Shown here piece by piece: positions 32,889-48,494 of a DNA stretch of 64,000 nucleotides (position 1 is the first letter of the stretch; every line of letters begins with the position of its first letter). Position numbers and translations under genes: made by a program. Source of the stretch: Spirochaetaceae bacterium (GTDB lineage: Bacteria; Spirochaetota; Spirochaetia; Treponematales; Treponemataceae); assembly GCA_017618015.1 (NCBI GenBank), contig JAFZVC010000025.1, positions 166,374-230,373 on the forward strand, read 5' to 3'. The notes beneath the pieces are model-generated. The model searched no databases. It saw nothing but the letters and a program-made list of their open reading frames with translations, and had not been told where the DNA came from.

Positions 32889-33164
32889 CTAGCAGTAAAA
32901 AGATATTCCTTCGAAATGCTTTTGCCATTCAGAACAGATGTAAGGAGCCCTGATTTCTATTACAGACATAATATCATTAAGAATATGCATCGGGATTTTT
33001 GATTTATTATGGGCAACAATACAATGCATGGATTTTGTAATCCAAATCTTTGTTCCGTTCTTTTGAGGTTTGCCTTGTGCAACATGAACGTGAACAGGTT
33101 CTTTTGGTTCGCCTTCATCTGACCAAAAATAAATTACATAACCACCGATACTAAAAATTTGCGG
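32889..33164 (-). CDS. DUF4160-like small protein
   Basis: MPQIFSIGGYVIYFWSDEGEPKEPVHVHV resembles the DUF4160 N-terminus (MPxI..F.G..I..Y..eH.PPHfH). Confidence 0.5.
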   Translation of the reverse strand, partial: PQIFSIGGYVIYFWSDEGEPKEPVHVHVAQGKPQKNGTKIWITKSMHCIVAHNKSKIPMHILNDIMSVIEIRAPYICSEWQKHFEGISFYC

Positions 33165-33426
33165 CATTACCAAAACCACCTTGTCTGGCGAATTTATAGA
33201 TAACGTGAACACCTTTTTCTATGATGTCTTGGAATTCTTTTATTTCATTATCGGAGAAGCCGTTGTTTTGCCAACTGTAGTTTGGTAAAATGCATGTCGC
33301 ATTAATAAAGCCACCGTCTACTGGGCGTTCGATGTATACCTTAATCTTTTCGCAGTTATTCTCTTCGTAGATACTTGAATGGGTAATCTCGGTTTCGTCA
33401 GGCATAGTCATAAAAGGGTATTTCAT
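33151..33426 (-). CDS. hypothetical small protein (upstream partner of DUF4160-like gene)
   Basis: GGAGG lies 8 nt upstream of ATG 33426 (MKYPFMT...). It overlaps the next gene by 14 nt. Confidence 0.45.
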   Translation of the reverse strand: MKYPFMTMPDETEITHSSIYEENNCEKIKVYIERPVDGGFINATCILPNYSWQNNGFSDNEIKEFQDIIEKGVHVIYKFARQGGFGNAANF

Positions 33427-33546
33427 CTTTGTCGCCTCCGAGTCTGAATTATAACACATTTCGGACATCTTGCAATATTATCTATAACAGCTTGCTTTTG
33501 CATGGATATGCCCTATACTGGAAGTATCATTTTTCAAGGAGTTCTT

Positions 33547-39948: not shown

Positions 39949-40215
39949 TTAGCCGATTACAGCAAGAATATCAGCAGCCTTAAGGATAAGGTGCTCTTCT
40001 CCGTCAATCTTAACGGCTGTACCAGCATATTTGTCGTACATAACGCGGTCGCCGGCTTTTACCTTGATTTTCTCTTTATCGTCTCCGACAGCGACAACAG
40101 TCGCAATCTGTGTTTTTTCCTGTGCTGTGTCCGGAATGATGATTCCGCTTGCAGTCTTTGACTCTGCTTTCTCGATCTTAACGAGAACTCTGTCCGCCAA
40201 TGGTGTAACCTTCAT
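39949..40215 (-). CDS. groES: co-chaperonin GroES
   Basis: [13 protein letters not shown]...[11 protein letters not shown]...G.V.AVG...D.V.Y.KY.GT..K.DGEE.LIL. No groEL is adjacent. Confidence 0.95.
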
Positions 40216-40249
40216 ATATTTCCTCCAAAAGGTTGAATTAAATTGGAAT

Positions 40250-40298
40250 TGTTCATTGTGAACACATTAAAGTTACGAAAAAAAAGCTCCATCGTCAA
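40250..40298 (-). promoter_or_regulatory. putative groES promoter with palindrome TGTTCA-N3-TGAACA at the predicted start site
   Basis: The minus strand reads TTGACG (40298-40293)-17 nt-TAACTT (40275-40270). The palindrome at 40250-40264 lies just downstream. No CIRCE (TTAGCACTC-N9-GAGTGCTAA) is present. Confidence 0.3.
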
Positions 40299-40507
40299 TA
40301 AAAATCGTCGTTGATGCTAACTCCTAACAGGAATTTGGCGGTTCCCGCCCGCACGATGTCGCGGGCGGTCGCTATGTTCCGGGTTCGCTTCCGCTCATTC
40401 CCACGCGGATAAACCGCATGGGAACAGCTTCGCTGCCCTTCACAGCGCTAACCGAGTTCATTTCGAAAAATTGTTTAAAAAAATTTTAGACTATACGTCG
40501 CTTCGCG

Positions 40508-40575
40508 CCGTTAGCGAGAGGAAATTTATTAAAATTCTGCGCTCACGCGCAGGACGCTATCATTCGGTGATAGTC
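40508..40575 (+). repeat. left copy of imperfect direct repeat bracketing the island
   Basis: CCGTTAGCGAGAGGAAATTTATTAAAATTCTGCGCTCACGCGCAGGACGCTATC... aligns without gaps to 46561-46628 with roughly 80 percent identity over the first ~55 nt (hand alignment). Confidence 0.7.
40557..40573. promoter_or_regulatory. candidate operator palindrome CTATCA-N5-TGATAG upstream of FliG-like/AAA+ genes
   Basis: Perfect 6-bp arms (CTATCAttcggTGATAG) 42 nt upstream of ATG 40615. The same half-sites and spacing occur at 42992-43008. Confidence 0.5.
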
Positions 40576-40614
40576 TGGTGCTTTACATTAATAGTGACAT
40601 TGAAGGAGTTGTGT

Positions 40615-41322
40615 ATGAGAAAAGAAAACACTGTTGAGACAAAGAAAGCGCAGGAATTGGTTTCAAAAACAATGGCTACTATCACCGAAGAAACCAAGAA
40701 TATCCTTATTGATTATATCCAGAACGGATATATTGAAAGCCTTTCAAAGGCAATTGCGTATCTCGGAATGAGCCCGGATGAAGCAAATATTCTTCTTGGA
40801 GATATGAGCGAAACTGTGAAAGAACGAATAACAAGCAATATCGCGCACTTTCAAAAACACGACGAAAGTGTCGTTTCTGAAGTTGAACATATTGTTCTGA
40901 CTCGTGGCAAAAAGCATGTTGCAGAAGAATACAAGGTAATCAAAGAGAACCTGCCATTTGCTGGAAAAGAGTTTGCTGAAAAATCCATACAGAATTTCCG
41001 AGCTAAAACACCCATTTTCCAGAAAACACTGGATGAATGTATTTTCACTTTTGAAGACATTAATCAGCTTGATGACCGTGAAATCCAAAAGATACTTTAT
41101 TGGACAGGACATAAGACACTGACTCTGGCTCTAAAAGGAGCTTCCAAAGAGCTTCGGAAAAGAATTTTCCGCAACAAACCCAAAAAAGAGGTGGCTATGC
41201 TCAAAGAAGCCATAGAGTTTTTGGGATCAGTTCGTGATTCGTGGATAGAAGAAGCTCAGGCAAAAATCGTAAAAAACGCTCTGCGTCTTGAAGCTGACGG
41301 TGAAATTGTTATTTGGAGATAA
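40615..41322 (+). CDS. FliG-like protein (middle + C-terminal domains only)
   Basis: The C-terminal half FEDINQLDDREIQKILYWTGHKTLTLALKGASKELRKRIFRN...EEAQAKIVKNALRLEADGEIVI follows the FliG_C signature (LDDR.IQ, LALKGAS.EL, EEAQ.KI, GEIVI). GAAGGAG RBS lies 6 nt before ATG 40615. At 235 aa it is about 100 aa shorter than canonical FliG. Confidence 0.65.
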   Translation: MRKENTVETKKAQELVSKTMATITEETKNILIDYIQNGYIESLSKAIAYLGMSPDEANILLGDMSETVKERITSNIAHFQKHDESVVSEVEHIVLTRGKKHVAEEYKVIKENLPFAGKEFAEKSIQNFRAKTPIFQKTLDECIFTFEDINQLDDREIQKILYWTGHKTLTLALKGASKELRKRIFRNKPKKEVAMLKEAIEFLGSVRDSWIEEAQAKIVKNALRLEADGEIVIWR

Positions 41323-41323
41323 T

Positions 41324-42982
41324 ATGGAAATCGGGATGAAAGAACCTAGAAAAATCAGATGGAATGTGCTGGCTGCAATTGATTATGTTTGCAAACAGAC
41401 AAAGTACAAAAAGCTAAAATACGAGAAAACTCCCCAAATGCAAAAAACACTGGAACGGCTTTGCTCTTATTTTGGCGGAATCAATGAGAATCAGGTTATT
41501 ATCCTCAGCGCAGTTCTTGACCTCCAGCTTTCGCATGACAAAATGACTAATATCAGCGATTTTTTCAATATGACCGCGCTCAGTTATCTTCAGCATAATA
41601 ATGAAATTGAGGATTTGGACGAGCGCGGTTTGTTGGATGTCGGGATAAACGAAGAAGGACATTCATACGATATCCCACAAATCGTAGTTACTGCAATTTT
41701 ACGTAACAGTGAAATAATCATTGAAAAGAAGGAGTTTGATCCAGTTGATTTCGTGAAAGAAGTGACTATGATCTTGGATAATAACTTGTACAATCAATTT
41801 AAAAAAAATAAAGAAAAAGTATATAAACTTGAAACGAAGAATTCAAAACAACCTTTTATAAAACATGTAAAAGCCCTTGTTCCGATACCATCCGATAGAA
41901 GTTGCTTTTATGCGATTTGCAGTGATTTTGTAGATGGTTTTGATACAAATTTGCAGCATGGTTTTCGTAGGGTATATGATAACAATGCAACTTCTAAAAT
42001 AAGAGCGATGCTCTCGGAGAGCCATGTGCTCTTAAAACATGGTCTTGTCGATTTTATCATAAAAGGCAATGTTATTGATTCAACTTTGACCCTGACGGAC
42101 AAAGCTAAAAAAATCTTTCTGGGTGAAAATGAATACCTCTATGAGCGGAAACTGAATGAGAAATCGCTTATCCTGCCGTCATCTATCGTTTCAAAGCATT
42201 TGTTCTACAGCCCGGAAAATCAAAAGCAGATTGATACGCTTTATTCCACTATAGAAAGTAAGAACCTTCTTTCTATACAAAACAGTCTGCGTTCTAAGGG
42301 GTTGTCGACAGGAATATGTATTCTTCTTTATGGAGCACCTGGTACTGGCAAGACAGAATCCGTGTATCAGATTGCAAAGGCAACGAACAGGCAAATCATT
42401 CATGTCGATATAAGTACGACAAAATCGTGTTGGTTTGGAGAAAGCGAAAAACTTATAGAACGTATATTTGTAGACTACAAGCGGTCATGTAAAAAACTTC
42501 TGGCGCACGGAAAAAGTGATATTCCTATTCTTCTTTTCAACGAGGCAGATGCAATCCTGCAAAAGCGCATGGAGTTTCATGGTGGTGGTGTTGAGAAAAC
42601 AGAGAATGCAATGCAGAACATCCTGCTTGAGAACATGGAAAAGTTTGAAGGCATTCTTATAGCGACGACAAACCTTGCCATAAATCTTGATGCAGCGTTT
42701 GAACGGCGGTTTCTGTTTAAAATAAAGTTCGACAATCCATCTGTGGAGGCAAAAACCGCGATTTGGAGATCGAAGCTTGAATGGCTGCCCGAAAATCAGG
42801 CTCAATTATTGGCGAACGAGTATAATTTTTCCGGTGGGGAGATTGATAATGTCGTCAGAAAGGCAACTATGGAAGAAATCCTTACGGGTTCAAGAGTTAC
42901 AATTAATCGGCTTGAAGAAATCTGCAATACGGAAAAACTGAATAATTCCGATTCCGGCAATAAAGTCGGGTTTCATGTATAA
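41324..42982 (+). CDS. classical-clade AAA+ ATPase with uncharacterised ~320-aa N-terminal region
   Basis: Walker A LYGAPGTGKTE, Walker B ILLFNEADA, sensor-1 IATTN, and SRH/Arg-finger region LDAAFERRF. The ATG lies 1 nt after the FliG-like stop. Confidence 0.8.
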   Translation: MEIGMKEPRKIRWNVLAAIDYVCKQTKYKKLKYEKTPQMQKTLERLCSYFGGINENQVIILSAVLDLQLSHDKMTNISDFFNMTALSYLQHNNEIEDLDERGLLDVGINEEGHSYDIPQIVVTAILRNSEIIIEKKEFDPVDFVKEVTMILDNNLYNQFKKNKEKVYKLETKNSKQPFIKHVKALVPIPSDRSCFYAICSDFVDGFDTNLQHGFRRVYDNNATSKIRAMLSESHVLLKHGLVDFIIKGNVIDSTLTLTDKAKKIFLGENEYLYERKLNEKSLILPSSIVSKHLFYSPENQKQIDTLYSTIESKNLLSIQNSLRSKGLSTGICILLYGAPGTGKTESVYQIAKATNRQIIHVDISTTKSCWFGESEKLIERIFVDYKRSCKKLLAHGKSDIPILLFNEADAILQKRMEFHGGGVEKTENAMQNILLENMEKFEGILIATTNLAINLDAAFERRFLFKIKFDNPSVEAKTAIWRSKLEWLPENQAQLLANEYNFSGGEIDNVVRKATMEEILTGSRVTINRLEEICNTEKLNNSDSGNKVGFHV

Positions 42983-42988
42983 AAAAAT

Positions 42989-43011
42989 AGCCTATCATTC
43001 CTTGATAGGCT
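42989..43011. promoter_or_regulatory. candidate operator / hairpin AGCCTATCA-N5-TGATAGGCT upstream of WYL regulator gene
   Basis: Perfect 9-bp arms. The element lies between the AAA+ stop (42982) and a TATAAT box (43017-43022) that precedes the WYL gene. No T-tract follows, so it is not a typical terminator. Confidence 0.5.
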
Positions 43012-43044
43012 GGGTGTATAATATTGATAATATGAGGAGGCTTT

Positions 43045-44046
43045 ATGGCGAAAGAAAGAGTGAAAAAACAGTTTTTGAACGGATATGAGCGTATCTTGAA
43101 AATCGATTATATGATTTCGAACTGGAATTATCCGAGCGTTGAGGATTTTGTAAACGAAACTGGAGCTTCCATTCCGACTATAAACCGCGACCTGCGGGAT
43201 TTGCGCCTGAAATTTGGTGCCGATGAGATATTGCAGTATGACAGGAACAAAAAGGGTTTTTATTACACGCTCCCGTCGTTCCGCATCCCGGCACTGCTCA
43301 CTTCCGAAAAGCAGATAATTGCCGCTCAGCTTATGTCAAATCTTTTGAATCTGATAAAAGACACTCCGGTTTACAAACAGGCAGTAGAGGTGTTTACTTC
43401 GCTTTCTAACGAGATTGATGAGGACACCAAGCTCAACGCTAAAAAGCTTTCTAACCGCATACTGTTTTTGGGAATGGAACCAGTTAAGATTGATGATGAG
43501 ATATGGACAAAGCTGGAGGAAGCCCTCGCGAATAATTATTATGTGAGCTTTAATTATAAAGGTCACAAGGAGAAGTTCAAAGTTCAACCATGGCAGCTTG
43601 TATACAGTCAAGGGATGTGGAGCTTGTATGCGTATAATCAGAATCCTGAAATAAAGAAAACACGCTTCTATAATCTTCCCGGAATGTACAATCTTGAGAT
43701 TGATAAGCAGAACACCTTTGAGTTGCCTGATGATTTTGAGTATACAAAACGCGCAAAAGGAAATTTCCGTCGGTACATTGGCAAAGAAACCTTGCAGTAC
43801 AAGATAAAGATTACTTCCGATAAAACGTTGGACTTCATAAAAACATACAACTGGGCTGAAGATCAGAAGTTCGAAAAACAGGATGATGGCAGTACGATAA
43901 TGACTTTCACGAGCAATCAGGACTGGCCGATTTTCGGCTGGGTTATGAGCCACGGAATGTACGCTCAACCGCTGGAACCTGAGTGGCTAGTGAACGAGTG
44001 GAAGAAAAACGTGAAAGAAATGGCGAAATTGGCGGAGAGGGTGTAG
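43045..44046 (+). CDS. WYL-domain transcriptional regulator (BrxR/CapW-like architecture)
   Basis: N-terminal wHTH (VEDFVNETGASIPTINRDLRDLRLKFG), YDRNKKGFYY, and WYL barrel (VSFNYKGHKEKFKVQPWQLVYSQGMWSLYAYN). GAGGAGG RBS. Confidence 0.8.
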   Translation: MAKERVKKQFLNGYERILKIDYMISNWNYPSVEDFVNETGASIPTINRDLRDLRLKFGADEILQYDRNKKGFYYTLPSFRIPALLTSEKQIIAAQLMSNLLNLIKDTPVYKQAVEVFTSLSNEIDEDTKLNAKKLSNRILFLGMEPVKIDDEIWTKLEEALANNYYVSFNYKGHKEKFKVQPWQLVYSQGMWSLYAYNQNPEIKKTRFYNLPGMYNLEIDKQNTFELPDDFEYTKRAKGNFRRYIGKETLQYKIKITSDKTLDFIKTYNWAEDQKFEKQDDGSTIMTFTSNQDWPIFGWVMSHGMYAQPLEPEWLVNEWKKNVKEMAKLAERV

Positions 44047-44075
44047 AAAAGCTAGGTTGATAAGGAGATTACGTT

Positions 44076-44756
44076 ATGCAATATACCAAAATTGAAAAGA
44101 TAATTAGAGATTCATTGTTAGATGTGAGAGACTTGTATACGAATAAACCAATAACATCGCATGTGATTTTTCCAAAATATTCTGACAACACAGAAAGATA
44201 TTCAGAGCAGGAACTAAAAAGCATCTTTTTGAGCAAGATTGAACAATCTGCATTTTATTATTCTGTCGAAACTCCATCCAGGAACAAATATCGGTTTGTT
44301 GAAAATGACGAGCCAAAAGTTTCATTCTGTGGAGAAGAATCAAAAGAGGTGTTTCAATCTTCTATGATAGATACGACTTTATATGATTCAAATAAAACTT
44401 TATTGAGCCATATAGAATTCAAATATGGACAAAGTTCCGTTTTTTCAATTCAAAAGGATTTTTTAAAGCTGATATGTGAATCACAAAATGTCAAGTACAA
44501 TTATTTTGCTCATTATCTTGGCAATTCAGACAATGGAACAAAAAAAGCGATTTTCAGTAAATATCGACAAGCATTGAATAATATTATGACTATCAATACA
44601 AACATTGATGATTTTGAGAGGAAGATTTCAAAGATCATCATTTTCGTGATGTTTGCAAGGTTGAATGAGATATATAGATTCTCTTTGAAAGATTTTGCTG
44701 AGAATCTCAACCTTGATGCTTATTTGGAAACAATCAGTCAGCCAACAGAACGGTAA
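44076..44756 (+). CDS. hypothetical protein with PD-(D/E)xK-like motif spacing
   Basis: AAGGAG RBS. D99-x14-E114-F-K116 (SSMIDTTLY...LSHIEFKYG) is preceded by an acidic helix (SEQELKS). Nuclease fold is inferred only. Confidence 0.45.
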   Translation: MQYTKIEKIIRDSLLDVRDLYTNKPITSHVIFPKYSDNTERYSEQELKSIFLSKIEQSAFYYSVETPSRNKYRFVENDEPKVSFCGEESKEVFQSSMIDTTLYDSNKTLLSHIEFKYGQSSVFSIQKDFLKLICESQNVKYNYFAHYLGNSDNGTKKAIFSKYRQALNNIMTINTNIDDFERKISKIIIFVMFARLNEIYRFSLKDFAENLNLDAYLETISQPTER

Positions 44757-44801
44757 AGAAGGAAAGCTAATCTGGCGAGTTTGATGAAGAGGGTGTAGAA
44801 T

Positions 44802-45419
44802 ATGAATAAGGAGATGAAAATGGAAGCGGCAAAGAATCAAGAATTAGATAAAAATCTTAATGATGAGGTTTTTGGTTACAATGGTAAAAAATATACTCTT
44901 TATGAATTACGATGTAGTGCAAATAATTATTTAACATCAGATCCTAAAGAATGCAGGCAAAAACTTAAGGAAAAATATGCAAAAGTTTATAATTGCATAG
45001 AACAAGAAGTTCCTCCTTCTATTCTGAAAGAAGTTTATAGTCTTGATTCAAATTTCAAAGAAATATGTGAACCAGTTTCTGGTTATACGAAGAATGATTA
45101 TTATGCCAGTAACTTAGGGAGAATTCGTCATTTTGGTAAGATTATGCTTCAGGATGATACGAATCTTAATGGATATCTTTATTTAAAAGATTATGCTGAA
45201 GGTAGCAACAAGCTATATAAATTTAAGTCAACAACTCCTGTATATACATTTATAGCCTGTGCTTTTTTTAAAGATTTCAATAACGGTACCGAGTTAAAGC
45301 ATATACATCATATTAATAATAATGGTTATGACTCTCGACCTGATAATTTAATTCCACTAACTCAGAAAGAACATTCAATTGCACATGGTCGAGTTATAAA
45401 AAATAGTAAGGAGGCGTAA
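44802..45419 (+). CDS. NUMOD4-HNH endonuclease
   Basis: YYASNLGRIRHFGK...NGYLY is NUMOD4-like. HIHHINNNGYDSRPDNLIPLTQKEHSIAH is the HNH_3 motif. The start could be ATG 44820, which has AAGGAG 6 nt upstream. Confidence 0.75.
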   Translation: MNKEMKMEAAKNQELDKNLNDEVFGYNGKKYTLYELRCSANNYLTSDPKECRQKLKEKYAKVYNCIEQEVPPSILKEVYSLDSNFKEICEPVSGYTKNDYYASNLGRIRHFGKIMLQDDTNLNGYLYLKDYAEGSNKLYKFKSTTPVYTFIACAFFKDFNNGTELKHIHHINNNGYDSRPDNLIPLTQKEHSIAHGRVIKNSKEA

Positions 45420-45420
45420 A

Positions 45421-46431
45421 ATGTTCGAATCAATTGGAAACAAAGATTTAAGACAGGTTTATAATGAACTTTGGGAAAATGAAGCAAATCGCCCTGCAGA
45501 GGTAATACCAACAAATCACTCGGAAGATTCTTTTCAATTTAAGATTAACAAAAAAAATGATATGTGTAATGAAATTGAAAGAATATTTGATCTTAATATA
45601 AAAGATTTTTCGAAAAAGTTTAAAGATGCCTGTTATTCACAGGGACAAGAATATAAGGAGATTTCTAAATTACATTCATCTGCTCTTTGTTCTTTACTTA
45701 TTTTTTCTGGGGTTTCCAACAATAATGAACTACGATTGACTCTCAATGGACAAGAATGTATTTTTTCTTCTGTTTTATTTGAGTATAAGAATAAGGTAAT
45801 AGGTTTTCCTTCGAATGTTGATGTTGTTTTAGTAGGGAAAAATAAGGATAAAACAAAGACAATAATTCTATTTCTAGAATCAAAATTTTCTGAATACCTA
45901 AGAGTTTCAAATATATTTGATGAACTTGGAAAAAGGTATATTACGAATGAGTATTCAAAAGAAATCTACACAGATGATTTTTTAAGAAATATAGGTATTC
46001 AATTGTGTAAAGATGAGAATTCCAAATTAAAAATCTTTTCAAAAAAAAGAAAAGGAAAAATGCGTGATTTCTATGGTTTCAAACCAATAGACGAAAACGA
46101 TGAAACTTATCTTGAGGGAATTAAACAAATGATTTCTCACTATATTGGTGTTGAACATTTTATTGAAGAAGATTTGGAAGATGATCGAAAAATAACTTAT
46201 TGTGCTAAAGACACAGAAGTCTATCTTGGAGAGATTCTTTTTGATTTCAAATTTAAGGACGCCAAAGAAAAGTTACGTAAATATTCTTCATATTACAAAA
46301 AACTAGCGAATAGGTTGAAAAAATTAAATCCAAACATTCATGTATTGGATGATATCTTAAAATATTCTTTATTTAAAGATTTAGATTTTGAAATAGCTGA
46401 TAAGGTAAAAAAATTTTACGGATTAGATTAA
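45421..46431 (+). CDS. hypothetical protein with PD-(D/E)xK-like motif spacing
   Basis: AGGAGG RBS, and the ATG lies 1 nt after the HNH stop. D134-x18-E153-S-K155 (PSNVDVVLVGK...ILFLESKFSE). Nuclease fold is inferred only. Confidence 0.45.
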   Translation: MFESIGNKDLRQVYNELWENEANRPAEVIPTNHSEDSFQFKINKKNDMCNEIERIFDLNIKDFSKKFKDACYSQGQEYKEISKLHSSALCSLLIFSGVSNNNELRLTLNGQECIFSSVLFEYKNKVIGFPSNVDVVLVGKNKDKTKTIILFLESKFSEYLRVSNIFDELGKRYITNEYSKEIYTDDFLRNIGIQLCKDENSKLKIFSKKRKGKMRDFYGFKPIDENDETYLEGIKQMISHYIGVEHFIEEDLEDDRKITYCAKDTEVYLGEILFDFKFKDAKEKLRKYSSYYKKLANRLKKLNPNIHVLDDILKYSLFKDLDFEIADKVKKFYGLD

Positions 46432-46465
46432 CAATAGAAATAAACATTTCTATCCCTGGTATTCG

Positions 46466-46504
46466 TCTCCGTTTATACTAGAAGTATGAGCGGAGATTTT
46501 TTTT
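46466..46504 (+). terminator. intrinsic terminator closing the WYL-nuclease operon
   Basis: 13-bp stem TCTCCGTTTATAC / GTATGAGCGGAGA (one G-U pair), 5-nt loop, then T8. Confidence 0.8.
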
Positions 46505-46560
46505 ACATAAAGCTCCGTAGCCTAATCACAAAGAAAACCGTTCTATGCATCACTTATGCT

Positions 46561-46628
46561 CCGCTAACGAGAGGAAATTTACTTAAATTCTGCACTCAGG
46601 CGCAGGACACTATCTCTCTATGATAATC
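46561..46628 (+). repeat. right copy of imperfect direct repeat bracketing the island
   Basis: CCGCTAACGAGAGGAAATTTACTTAAATTCTGCACTCAGGCGCAGGACACTATC... is the partner of 40508-40575. Confidence 0.7.
46610..46626. promoter_or_regulatory. degenerate third copy of the palindrome (CTATCT-N5-TGATAA)
   Basis: It occupies the same position within the right direct repeat as the left-copy palindrome. Both arms carry one change. Confidence 0.3.
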
Positions 46629-46656
46629 CTCCTGTTTATACTGTATAAACAGGAGG
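46628..46656 (+). promoter_or_regulatory. perfect 14-bp-arm palindrome that contains the RBS of ORF 46661
   Basis: CCTCCTGTTTATAC-T-GTATAAACAGGAGG. The right arm ends in AGGAGG 4 nt before ATG 46661. It is either an SD-sequestering hairpin or a dimer operator. Confidence 0.5.
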
Positions 46657-46660
46657 ATGT

Positions 46661-47029
46661 ATGGCAAATAGATTAGATATGGGTGAATACGCACTAGTAG
46701 AAAGATTCTACGTAGTTGAACCAATTGAAAGGCTTCGTAAAGTCGAACGAATCCAGAGTTTGTCTTTGGTAGAACGTTCTCATTTAATGCGGTTAGTGCA
46801 ATATTTGGAGCGAGATCGTGCCGAAATAATGGCAAAAAATCCGAATCCAAAGCATCTACCGTTTCCAAATGAAAAAAGCGTACAGCCACAAGAAGAAAAT
46901 CCAGCGTATATCCTTGATATCGGTAATCATAATAATGATGACATTTCTGGCGTAATTGTGGATATTGGTAATCATAATAATTATGACAAATCTGGTGTAA
47001 TCGTGGATATTGCCTGTCTAAGAAAATAA
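46661..47029 (+). CDS. hypothetical protein with internal 15-aa tandem repeat
   Basis: AGGAGG RBS 4 nt before the ATG. The C-terminus repeats DIGNHNN(D/Y)D(I/K)SGVIV. No family recognised, and coding status is uncertain. Confidence 0.35.
   Translation: MANRLDMGEYALVERFYVVEPIERLRKVERIQSLSLVERSHLMRLVQYLERDRAEIMAKNPNPKHLPFPNEKSVQPQEENPAYILDIGNHNNDDISGVIVDIGNHNNYDKSGVIVDIACLRK
46916..47011 (+). repeat. 45-bp tandem repeat, 2.1 copies, inside ORF 46661
   Basis: GATATCGGTAATCATAATAATGATGACATTTCTGGCGTAATTGTG versus GATATTGGTAATCATAATAATTATGACAAATCTGGTGTAATCGTG (39/45 identical by hand count), then GATATT. Confidence 0.8.
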
Positions 47030-47106
47030 CTCACTTTTTTAAGTTTCATACAAACGTGTTTAAGACAGCGGAGTTTACCGCTGGGCTAGGGCGTGGAGCA
47101 GTTGCG

Positions 47107-47190
47107 GACGTACATTAAGCGTCCATGCTTAATGTACTTAGCGGGTTTTGTAACAAAACCCGACAGTTTTTGCGCACATCCATGTGCGCA
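47107..47190 (-). repeat. three-hairpin GC-rich module, copy 2 (inverted)
   Basis: The reverse complement reads TGCGCACATggATGTGCGCA, CGGGTTTTG-tta-CAAAACCCG and GTACATTAAGC-atggac-GCTTAATGTAC. Order, linkers and H3 loop match copy 1. An extra outer stem GCGGACGTA/TACGTCCGC sits at 47104-47112 and 47202-47210. Confidence 0.7.
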
Positions 47191-47214
47191 GTTGAATGTC
47201 CTACGTCCGCAAGT

Positions 47215-47330
47215 CGGAACGACCGCGCGTTAGCGTATTTCGCAACAAGCACGGAGTGCGCCGTTTCCAGCTAGCTGCGGAAGGCCCGGCACGCCGTAGG
47301 CGGGCAGCCCCCATAATCATAATTAAATAA
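47215..47330 (-). repeat. modular GC-rich intergenic repeat, copy adjoining the three-hairpin module
   Basis: The reverse complement contains GCTAGCTGGAAACGGCGCACTCCGTGC. On the plus strand the block ends in GCAGCCCCCATAATCATAATT, reminiscent of CCCCCGCCTATCATATT in copy B. Confidence 0.45.
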
Positions 47331-47600
47331 AGAATCTGGTGGGGTGACGCGAAATGAACCATCGGGACAATAAAAGTGTCAAAATGAACCAGTAAAGGGG
47401 GTAAAAAGAAAGGGTGTGTCAAATTTACACAATAGAAGATAATAACAAAGAGTCAAAAAGTAAAGAAAAATCGATAAAAATCTGAGGATAAAAAATTAAG
47501 GTCGTATTTATACGATTTATCTGTCTGCTTTATAAGAAGATGGAAAGGGGTGCAGGTGCAAGGAAATTTTTGGAAATATTTTTTTAAGGATTTGTGATTT

Positions 47601-47616
47601 TGGCACGGTAATTGCA
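47601..47616 (+). promoter_or_regulatory. sigma-54 (RpoN) -24/-12 promoter for the RpoS-like sigma gene
   Basis: TGGCACGgtaaTTGCA matches the TGGCACG-N4-TTGCW consensus at every conserved position. It lies 39 nt upstream of ATG 47655, and GGAGG RBS sits at 47644-47648. Confidence 0.65.
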
Positions 47617-47654
47617 AGTATAGTTGTGTAACGGAAACGTAACGGAGGCAAAAA

Positions 47655-48494
47655 ATGGCTAATGATGATGTAATTCTTGCAATGTACCTTAAAGAGATCA
47701 ACAGAATCCCTCTCCTTTCACGTGATGAGGAAACCGATCTTGCAGCCCGCGCGAAAGCTGGTGACAAGATTGCAAAAGACAAGATTGTACGTGCGAATCT
47801 CCGCTTCGTTGTCAATGTAGCAAAAAAATATCAGAACCGTGGGCTTGATCTTACCGACCTTATCAGCGAGGGAAATATCGGGCTTCTTACTGCCATCGAC
47901 CGTTACGATGTGTCAAAAGGATACCATTTCATTTCTTATGCCGTATGGTGGATCCGCCAGGCAATTCTTAAGGCTATCTACGAGAAGTCAAGGATGATCA
48001 GGCTTCCGCTTAACCGCGCGAACGAGCTTGTTCAGATTGAGAAAGCTCGCAAATCTGTCGGTGGAAGCAAGACAGAAGAGCAGGAAATCCGCGAGATTGC
48101 AGAGATGCTCAACATGGACAAGACTCATGTCCGCGACCTTCTTAATATCGCAAGGGATATGATTTCGCTTGATAGCGCAGTGAATCCTGGCGATTCAGAC
48201 AGTTCATCGCTCGGAGAGTTCATTTCTGACTCACTTTACGATGATCCTGAAGAGCACGTTATGCAGACGAGCATGAGGGAAGATATAGACGCAGTTCTCG
48301 ACAGCCTTACGGAAAAAGAGGCTGAGGTTCTGCGCTGCCGCTTCGGACTCAACGGAAAAGAGTCGATGTCGCTTAAGGAAGTTGGCGATGTGTTCCATCT
48401 TACGAAAGAGAGAATCCGCCAGATCGAGAAGAAGGCTATCCGGCGCCTGCAGCATCCTACACGCATGAACAAGCTGGAAGCTTACGTAGCGTAA
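47655..48494 (+). CDS. sigma-70 family sigma factor, group-2 (RpoS-like), regions 1.2-4
   Basis: Region 2 DLISEGNIGLLTAIDRYDVSKGYHFISYAVWWIRQAI and region 4.2 SLKEVGDVFHLTKERIRQIEKKAIRRLQHP are RpoD/RpoS-type rather than FliA-type. It is only 279 aa. Confidence 0.85.
   Translation: MANDDVILAMYLKEINRIPLLSRDEETDLAARAKAGDKIAKDKIVRANLRFVVNVAKKYQNRGLDLTDLISEGNIGLLTAIDRYDVSKGYHFISYAVWWIRQAILKAIYEKSRMIRLPLNRANELVQIEKARKSVGGSKTEEQEIREIAEMLNMDKTHVRDLLNIARDMISLDSAVNPGDSDSSSLGEFISDSLYDDPEEHVMQTSMREDIDAVLDSLTEKEAEVLRCRFGLNGKESMSLKEVGDVFHLTKERIRQIEKKAIRRLQHPTRMNKLEAYVA

Follow-up and report, generated by a model that had tools for sequence, protein, structure and literature searches.

Most known defence islands under WYL regulators are from Proteobacteria, and their cargo consists of catalogued systems. 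Islands of the BrxR/CapW kind, made up of a regulator plus its cargo, are already known, and BrxR-family WYL regulators adjoin diverse defence systems (PMC9122601). CapW binds single-stranded DNA (ssDNA) and then lets go of its operator (PMC11662680), and in CapW, DriD and PafBC alike the ssDNA is bound by the WYL domain (PMC11662680, PMC10853764, PMC11804915). Promoters that depend on DriD have no -35 element; its place is taken by the DriD site, whose distance from the -10 is fixed (PMC13004042). Here we describe an operon headed by a WYL regulator from a gut Spirochaetaceae bacterium (assembly GCA_017618015.1, contig JAFZVC010000025.1), located at positions 43045-46431 of a 64,000-nucleotide (nt) stretch of that contig (166,374 to 230,373, forward strand). 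This whole stretch is called the window below, and all coordinates refer to it. Behind the regulator lie three genes for predicted nucleases, designated orfA, the HNH gene and orfC. Judging from comparative sequence analysis, we read the locus as a horizontally acquired, WYL-controlled nuclease cassette, whose most likely role is inducible defence against phages or foreign DNA, an interpretation that we hold with about evenly balanced confidence.

Organisation of the operon

The four open reading frames (ORFs) are located on the + strand at 43045-44046 (333 amino acids, aa), 44076-44756 (226 aa), 44802-45419 (205 aa) and 45421-46431 (336 aa), and encode the WYL regulator, orfA, the HNH protein and orfC, in this order. 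A preliminary description of the window had proposed a tight operon with strong ribosome-binding sites and a single strong terminator, all of which, including the coordinates of the four same-strand genes, was confirmed. Shine-Dalgarno sites were found 5' of 43045 (GAGGAGG), 44076 (AAGGAG) and 45421 (AAGGAGG). An intrinsic terminator with a 15-pair stem followed by T7 closes the operon on the + strand, from 46465 to about 46497-46504; it is the sole such site after the operon, and the terminator scan revealed no terminator-like site on the + strand inside 43045-46431. The intergenic distances given in the preliminary description (29, 45 and 1 nt) match the ORF limits, but the second is probably too short. 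The HNH gene probably starts at 44820 and not at 44802, because M7 is the invariant first residue in its relatives (165-208 aa, 21 aligned) and an AAGGAG is placed 6 nt 5' of the ATG at 44820; the actual gap to orfA would therefore be about 63 nt. This layout demonstrates a predicted single transcription unit, with the four genes driven by one promoter and ended by one terminator. The operon is part of an island low in guanine plus cytosine (GC), with a GC content of 42% in the WYL gene, 31% in orfA, 30% in the HNH gene and 27% in orfC, as compared with 46-50% in the flanking genes for TPR, GroES, sigma factor and RecG. Records of identical proteins exist for a metagenome-assembled genome of Spirochaetaceae.

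The WYL regulator and its promoter

The first gene (43045-44046, + strand) encodes a transcription regulator of 333 aa with a WYL domain (Pfam PF13280, E 1.7e-7, 31.6 bits versus a cut-off of 21.8) and a C-terminal WCX domain (PF25583, E 2.7e-6, 28.1 bits versus a cut-off of 23.9). The PADLOC WYL model was matched at E 1.2e-22; no Pfam helix-turn-helix match was obtained for the N-terminus, and the PADLOC WYL model PDLC01457 aligns from residue 14. A profile built from seven sequences (this protein and its relatives) matched PafBC at 6e-14, the Caulobacter DriD entries at 6e-12 to 3e-11 and PafB/PafC at 1e-7 to 7e-9, and BrxR at 0.42. Given the WYL and WCX domains and the PafBC/DriD scores, the protein is tentatively assigned to the winged helix-turn-helix-WYL-WCX type and is, by sequence, nearer to the ssDNA-sensing activators than to BrxR. 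The preliminary description had ascribed to it a BrxR/CapW architecture, of which the WYL+WCX regulator stands, whereas the kinship does not, the profile being far closer to PafBC/DriD. Its further suggestion that the protein represses the operon is not established, because the profile is activator-like and the promoter has a perfect -10 hexamer without a recognisable -35 under a palindrome.

This palindrome, the candidate operator of the WYL regulator, has 23 bp (42989-43011, either strand), lies between the stop codon of an upstream AAA gene (42982) and the start of the WYL gene, and reads AGCCTATCA-TTCCT-TGATAGGCT; it covers the would-be -35 position. The perfect -10 hexamer, TATAAT (43017-43022, + strand), is found directly 3' of it within the conserved GGGTGTATAAT, GGG-TG-TATAAT running straight on from the palindrome. 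Upstream of TATAAT, no good candidate for a -35 hexamer was seen at a spacing of 16-18 bp. Comparison was made with 77 orfC loci and 80 orfA loci, plus HNH loci (numbered with the prefix L), whose neighbours were clustered after crude ORF calling. The arrangement of palindrome and TATAAT was kept 5' of the WYL genes in five loci, namely the window, L078, L007, L030 and L033, with GGTGTATAAT constant in all five. The arms of the palindrome are AGCC/GGCT in the window and AGAC/GTCT in L007 and L033, so that the symmetry is kept; those of L030 are mixed. L007 has an FlhB-like gene in place of the AAA gene 5' of its WYL gene, yet the palindrome is present, for which reason we assign it to the WYL promoter. 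The possibility that it is a mere terminator of the AAA gene was ruled out, since a T run is lacking on the + strand and the palindrome accompanies the WYL gene even behind a different upstream gene. The paired operator half-sites occur once in the 64-kb window and nowhere else in it, which fits a local regulator. In a crude scan of the regions upstream of the WYL genes of Bacteroidales and Lachnospiraceae, no palindrome common to them stood out clearly. Upstream of several WYL genes of the Bacteroidales type (L054, L069, L053, L151), a CTGCC-N7-GGCAG-like palindrome was noticed by eye, which may be the operator of that clade.

As compared with the described regulators, the protein shares with BrxR and CapW the WYL+WCX domains, the position as first gene, the palindrome at its own promoter and a variable, mobile cargo downstream (PMC9122601, PMC11662680), and differs from them in its profile and in a cargo that is not a known defence system. 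DriD of Caulobacter and PafBC of mycobacteria, which activate DNA-damage genes on sensing ssDNA, provide the best solved-structure matches to its WYL/WCX part (PMC10853764, PMC13004042, PMC11804915), and the DriD site, like the palindrome in the window, overlaps a missing -35 at a fixed distance from the -10. However, DriD and PafBC are global regulators with many sites, unlike the single candidate site found here in 64 kb, and the genes under the regulator in the window form a swappable low-GC nuclease cassette. It should be noted that the repressor operator of CapW/BrxR lies over the -35 region and would look the same as that in the window (PMC11662680, PMC9122601). The promoter sequence thus fits repression and activation alike.

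The three predicted nucleases

All three proteins encoded downstream of the regulator carry intact predicted metal-nuclease motifs, two of the PD-(D/E)xK and one of the HNH type. The orfA gene (44076-44756, + strand, 226 aa) is predicted to encode a PD-(D/E)xK nuclease on the basis of its AlphaFold2 model and invariant alignment columns, and has no Pfam model. Pfam and NCBIfam gave no match, the PHROG matches were at chance level, and single-sequence and profile searches against PDB sequences returned nothing meaningful. An exhaustive profile search (E <= 1e-3) delineated a family of 1,204 clusters at 50% identity; among the matches listed, all were stand-alone proteins of approx. 150-280 aa. 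None of 68 sampled members was assigned to a Pfam family, with two marginal matches to HSDR_N. The D99...E114-F-K116 motif proposed in the preliminary description was found to be invariant in both family alignments (44 and 68 sequences), and the full set of invariant residues comprises E44, Q45, E46, E65, P67, D99, E114, K116 and D128. The model is confident (predicted local distance difference test, pLDDT, 92.9) and has an alpha-beta-beta-beta-alpha-beta core of the nuclease type, formed by helix 44-56, strands 61-73, 94-103 and 109-117, helix 122-134 and strand 142-148. The catalytic candidates are E44 and E46 in the helix, D99 in the second core strand and E114-x-K116 in the third. Foldseek matches in PDB were weak (best E 2.7e-3, to Cdn1; TM 0.2-0.4) and mostly to PD-(D/E)xK enzymes, with Cdn1, SfsA, DrdV, PspGI, OkrAI, NucS, BamHI, MunI and EndoMS among them. 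Taken as modelled, orfA very likely has the restriction-endonuclease fold.

The orfC gene (45421-46431, + strand, 336 aa) is likewise predicted to encode a PD-(D/E)xK nuclease and is a divergent relative of Pfam family PF22558 (REase-ARP). Its 646 homologues were found in genomes of Treponema, Lachnospiraceae, Bacteroidales, Elusimicrobia, Mollicutes and Negativicutes. PF22558 was matched (E <= 0.01) by 11 of 60 aligned relatives, which are 32-60% identical to orfC; the best E was 3.5e-8, and one relative exceeded the gathering threshold (32.3 bits versus a cut-off of 27). These matches cover the core with D134 and E153-x-K155, and the D134...E153-S-K155 arrangement, also noted in the preliminary description, is invariant in all 60 sequences, as are H85-S86-S87, E121 and K235/Q236/H240. 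In the AlphaFold2 model (pLDDT 95.5), D134 is located in strand 131-141 and E153-S-K155 in the adjacent strand 147-155, and the nuclease core is augmented by additional N-terminal and inserted segments. NCBIfam gave no match, the PHROG matches were at chance level, and PDB sequence and profile searches yielded nothing meaningful. Since Foldseek also gave nothing significant, the nuclease assignment is based on the Pfam matches of the relatives and on the conserved motif; orfC is very probably a protein of the restriction-endonuclease fold.

PF22558 and PF20796 (PDDEXK_13) are restriction-endonuclease-fold families without tested function. Besides the matches of the orfC relatives, a likeness is seen in locus L078, where a bona fide REase-ARP (E 1.5e-28) fills the slot equivalent to that of orfC; the window orfC, in contrast, gives no match itself, and by BLAST or hhalign no similarity between it and the L078 protein could be detected. 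Also rejected was the idea that orfA and orfC are paralogues (hhalign of their profiles, probability 0.2). The meaning of 'ARP' in REase-ARP was not found in the literature search.

The middle gene encodes a NUMOD4-HNH nuclease (44820-45419, + strand, the ORF opening at 44802). NUMOD4 was scored at 27.3 bits versus a cut-off of 23.4 and HNH_3 at 19.8 bits, below its cut-off of 24.8, and PHROG HNH families were matched at 5e-10. Residues M7, H169, H170, N173, N182, H191 and H195 are invariant in 21 relatives; as read from this alignment, the HNH motif is intact. An N-terminal domain of approx. 80 aa is specific to the family and conserved in close relatives. The preliminary description had taken the protein for an HNH nuclease of the type usually seen in phage homing; the HNH nuclease was confirmed, but the homing type was not borne out, as the family recurs downstream of WYL genes. 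Relatives were found directly 3' of a WYL gene in one locus (L160) and on a second contig; in L007 and L033 they separate the WYL gene from orfC, and in L159 they belong to an island with WYL, FliG_C and FHIPEP genes. With phage homing endonucleases of the I-HmuI type (NUMOD4/HNH_3) the protein shares NUMOD4 and the beta-beta-alpha-metal motif HH...N...N...H...H, whereas it differs from them in its family-specific N-terminal domain, its chromosomal position downstream of a WYL gene and its near-absence from phage records, in which a single remote match was obtained (29% identity, E 8e-5). On these grounds, and because L078, which has no HNH gene, differs also in the next gene, the protein does not fit the picture of a free-standing homing endonuclease.

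Exchange of cargo behind the regulator

The limits given in the preliminary description (43045-46431) proved too narrow, as a coupled pair of genes directly upstream travels with the WYL gene. The first (40615-41322, + strand; the ORF opens at 40471, the likely start being M49, in agreement with the gene call in L078) encodes a FliG_C-like protein (Pfam FliG_C, E 2.1e-29; GC 38.8%). It is an island-associated paralogue outside any flagellar operon, and such genes adjoin WYL islands in at least six loci of the Treponema type, among them L007, L033, L078, L079 and L159. The second encodes a classic-clade AAA+ ATPase (41324-42982, + strand, the ORF opening at 41288; Pfam AAA, E 4e-21) with an uncharacterised N-terminal region of approx. 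300 aa and with VAT, Cdc48 and Vps4 as the best PDB matches. Translation of the ATPase probably starts at the ATG at 41324, a single nt past the stop of the FliG_C-like gene, so that the pair, directly upstream of the WYL promoter, appears translationally coupled. AAA+ relatives were found beside WYL or orfC genes, in varying orientation, in seven loci of Treponema and Bacteroidales, including L030, L053 and L078. The ATPase resembles that of IetAS/IteAS, systems composed of an AAA+ ATPase plus a protease, in its match to the PADLOC IetA model (1.4e-27), but is far below the cut-off of NCBIfam IteA (91.3 bits versus 510), and has a FliG_C-like partner instead of a protease, none of which was seen among the proteins scanned.

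Locus L078 is the closest relative of the window. A block at 40259-44815 (+ strand) that covers the FliG_C-like, AAA, WYL and orfA genes is shared with it at 92-95% DNA identity (blastn), whereas identity in the flanking TPR and GroES genes is 71-72%. This difference points to recent horizontal transfer or recombination of the block. The gene order in L078 is TPR, GroES, FliG_C-like, AAA, WYL, orfA (89% identical), the different REase-ARP mentioned above and a 317-aa protein; the high identity stops at the start of the HNH gene, and other cargo follows. In L030, a related AAA-WYL pair (phmmer E 2e-225 and 2e-174, approx. 72% DNA identity) is followed by a DUF6994 gene and a divergent orfC. Since L078 and L030 differ downstream of related WYL genes, the comparison demonstrates, at the level of gene content, the WYL gene as the apparently stable anchor of a cargo that is exchanged between close relatives. 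The DUF6994 protein (289 aa, L030 3209-4078, directly after the WYL gene) is paired with orfC there and with an orfA relative on a contig of GCA_016648615.1, and thus looks like another swappable cargo gene.

Recurrence of the parts in other loci

Three clusters of WYL+WCX proteins, of Bacteroidales, Lachnospiraceae and Treponema types, adjoin orfC. A WYL gene was found within four genes of orfC in 22, and adjacent to it in 13, of the 44 distinct orfC neighbourhoods that extend over at least 3 kb to either side. The orfA gene directly follows a WYL gene in five loci, L078 included; in five others it shares an operon headed by a WYL gene with genes for metallophosphatase and MBL-fold proteins. 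Of roughly 160 loci, just the window, L078, L053 and L098 combine orfA with orfC (or another REase-ARP), in differing arrangements. The idea of a conserved three-gene system, for which the preliminary description had suggested looking, was hence abandoned: orfA and orfC stand together in about four of roughly 160 loci, L078 has no HNH gene, and what recurs near WYL genes of Treponema, Bacteroidales and Lachnospiraceae is each nuclease singly. The order of HNH gene and orfC, in immediate succession, is shared by the window (1-nt gap), L007 and L033. A single contig may contain several paralogous WYL genes with separate cargoes (L026, L159).

A different context is represented by a highly conserved six-gene operon of the Segatella/Prevotella type, which encodes, in this order, a DnaE fragment (166 aa), a 130-aa protein, an MBL/RMMBL nuclease (425 aa), an orfA relative (217 aa), a metallophosphatase (197 aa) and a 114-aa protein. 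It was found in three neighbouring entries of our set (L082-L084) and approx. 50 further loci (between L100 and L156), with one protein cluster present on 151 contigs.

Relatives of orfA and orfC were found neither in 50,697 phage records nor in IMG/VR, and a search of 72,556 plasmids, made for orfC only, gave none. An origin of the two as prophage or plasmid genes was set aside accordingly, and the possibility raised in the preliminary description that they always occur inside prophages did not refute the defence reading. No full-length integrase, transposase or intein was seen in the loci compared; a 204-aa protein limited to an Arm DNA-binding domain of the integrase type is shared by some orfC loci of Bacteroidales.

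WYL/nuclease islands repeatedly contain truncated paralogues of essential proteins (13 loci, among them L007, L079 and L159). Among these paralogues are proteins consisting of just the C-terminal domain of DnaB (165-279 aa), fragments of DnaE (166-531 aa) and of FlhA (FHIPEP), FlhB-like proteins and short sigma-70 proteins (132-169 aa). The DnaE fragment of L079 has 66% DNA identity to the dnaE region of the window near 56.4-57.1 kb. These truncated paralogues could be decoys or guards, or recombination debris.

Surroundings of the island in the window

Just past the operon terminator is an ORF of 122 aa (orf122, 46661-47029) with a strong ribosome-binding site and no family match; it holds a 45-bp tandem repeat in 2.6 copies (46897-47012) that codes for DIGNHNN..SGVIVDI units. 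The region 47040-47420, between the island and a sigma-factor gene, is GC-rich, with many inverted repeats and a terminator-like hairpin (47142-47162) and without a match in Rfam; this could be where the island ends on the right. No Rfam match was obtained anywhere in 40000-48000, and no tRNA gene was found in the window. The sigma-70 family protein directly downstream (47655-48494, 279 aa) has regions 1.2, 2, 3 and 4, and its N-terminal half is, by eye, close to the short sigma-like proteins that adjoin orfC in two Bacteroidales loci (L039, L050). A second low-GC patch is located at approx. 31-34 kb, in which two small overlapping ORFs (32889-33468, - strand) resemble, by eye, a DUF4160/DUF2442 pair; such a pair adjoins an orfC locus (L001-L003) and a WYL-HNH locus.

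Possible function

If the locus is inducible as we favour, the WYL protein would bind the palindrome as a dimer through a putative N-terminal winged helix, and its WYL domain would sense ssDNA arising from phage replication, restriction or DNA damage, as in CapW, DriD and PafBC. Sensing of ssDNA would then turn the operon on, either by release of the repressor or by DriD-like activation, and the three metal-dependent nucleases would degrade DNA, be it that of the invader or, in a suicidal abortive infection, that of the cell. We infer a role in defence or abortive infection from this arrangement. The nucleases probably act as independent effectors under a shared sensor and not as subunits of a single complex; an exception may be the HNH protein and orfC, which may work together, as their genes are 1 nt apart and their order recurs in L007 and L033. 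A restriction-modification system was rejected, there being no cognate methyltransferase among the seven proteins scanned (FliG_C-like, AAA, WYL, orfA, HNH, orfC and orf122), none of which has a methyltransferase domain; the lack of a modification enzyme remarked upon in the preliminary description was thereby corroborated.

Several observations weigh against a defence function. PADLOC 2.0 gave no defence match besides the generic WYL model, the weak IetA-like AAA and, for the HNH protein, a marginal ZorE (E 0.0031), with zero matches for orfA and orfC. The structural matches of orfA are weak, as described above; orfC itself has no PF22558 score and no Pfam match at E <= 1, and its model found no Foldseek match in PDB and BFVD at E <= 1e-3 (TM <= 0.2). 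The WYL profile is nearer to the DNA-damage regulators PafBC and DriD than to BrxR, the Segatella relative of orfA belongs to a stable and highly prevalent operon without a WYL gene, and the neighbours of the relatives include an MBL/beta-CASP-type protein, a metallophosphatase, a DnaQ-like protein (by motif) and DnaE fragments.

In the main rival explanation, the locus would be a LexA-independent module of DNA-damage response or repair, with the WYL protein as a DriD/PafBC-type ssDNA-binding activator of nucleases that process damaged DNA or stalled forks. The profile scores (PafBC 6e-14 and DriD 6e-12 to 3e-11, versus BrxR 0.42) would agree with it, as would the promoter, whose palindrome at the -35 position, perfect -10 and lack of a -35 are the architecture of DriD promoters. 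Relatives of orfA and orfC stand beside proteins like the DnaQ exonuclease (by motif), the MBL/RMMBL nuclease, a Mre11-like metallophosphatase and DnaE, and those of Segatella are near genes for AlkZ-type glycosylases. To our knowledge, LexA is largely absent from Treponema and Bacteroidales, which would suit such a module. However, the cargo differs downstream of near-identical WYL genes, which would be unusual for a repair regulon, and its GC content is strongly deviant, with signs of recent transfer. The operator occurs once in 64 kb, with no second copy near recG and dnaE, and several WYL paralogues with their own cargo can be present in one contig. We consider a damage-response module clearly less likely than the defence reading, but the most serious of the alternatives.

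In a further rival explanation, one or more of the nucleases would be modification-dependent (Type IV-like) restriction enzymes that need no methyltransferase, spare the unmodified host DNA and leave the cell alive. Three nucleases without a methyltransferase domain among the island proteins scanned would be in line with this, the extra N-terminal and inserted regions of orfC could read DNA features, and several restriction enzymes are among the weak Foldseek matches of orfA. On the other hand, no modification-reading domain (SRA, YTH, DUF3427 or similar) was detected in the three proteins, and tight transcriptional gating by a WYL regulator suits toxic effectors better than harmless ones, so that we regard restriction by nucleases only as distinctly improbable. 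The most doubtful explanation is that of selfish mobile DNA, in which a NUMOD4-HNH homing endonuclease would have been inserted between orfA and orfC and the other nucleases would serve spread or addiction of the element with no benefit to the host: the absence of the HNH gene from L078, the break of identity exactly at its start, the NUMOD4/HNH_3 domains typical of phage homing endonucleases, the best PHROG matches (HNH endonucleases) and the mobility of the island as a whole would suit it, but the gene after orfA in L078 differs too, which indicates a cassette swap and not a clean insertion, a conserved N-terminal domain sets the HNH family apart and its members directly follow WYL genes in no fewer than five loci, its sole phage match is remote, and no full-length integrase, transposase or intein in the loci compared, nor a tRNA gene in the window, was found.

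Returning to the WYL-controlled nuclease cassette, a much broader and frankly speculative extension, with only a slim chance of being correct, is that the locus is one case of an undescribed cross-phylum immune architecture in gut anaerobes, in which WYL sensors, often with a Cdc48-like AAA+ protein, would gate shuffled nucleases, the truncated paralogues being decoys or guards. The shuffled pool would consist of orfA, orfC/REase-ARP, the HNH family, MBL and metallophosphatase proteins and, by motif, PLD-like and DnaQ-like proteins. The decoys (FliG_C-like, FlhA/FlhB-like, DnaB C-terminal, DnaE fragments and short sigma-70) would signal that a phage is attacking the host machinery of replication, transcription or the flagellum.

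Implications

What is new in this locus is the cargo, namely a family without a Pfam model (orfA), a divergent branch of REase-ARP (orfC) and a WYL-linked NUMOD4-HNH family, together with the taxa, Treponema of gut and rumen, Bacteroidales and Lachnospiraceae, and the recurring AAA+ and FliG_C-like partners. The three WYL-gated nucleases are candidate effectors outside every defence catalogue. The promoter, with its palindrome and TATAAT, offers a handle on whether this branch of WYL regulators represses, like CapW/BrxR, or activates, like DriD/PafBC. The recurring truncated housekeeping paralogues are the most intriguing lead and would, if functional, point to sensing of the decoy type. As the same parts recombine behind WYL genes in three lineages, a functional result for this operon would annotate many genes of rumen and gut microbiomes.

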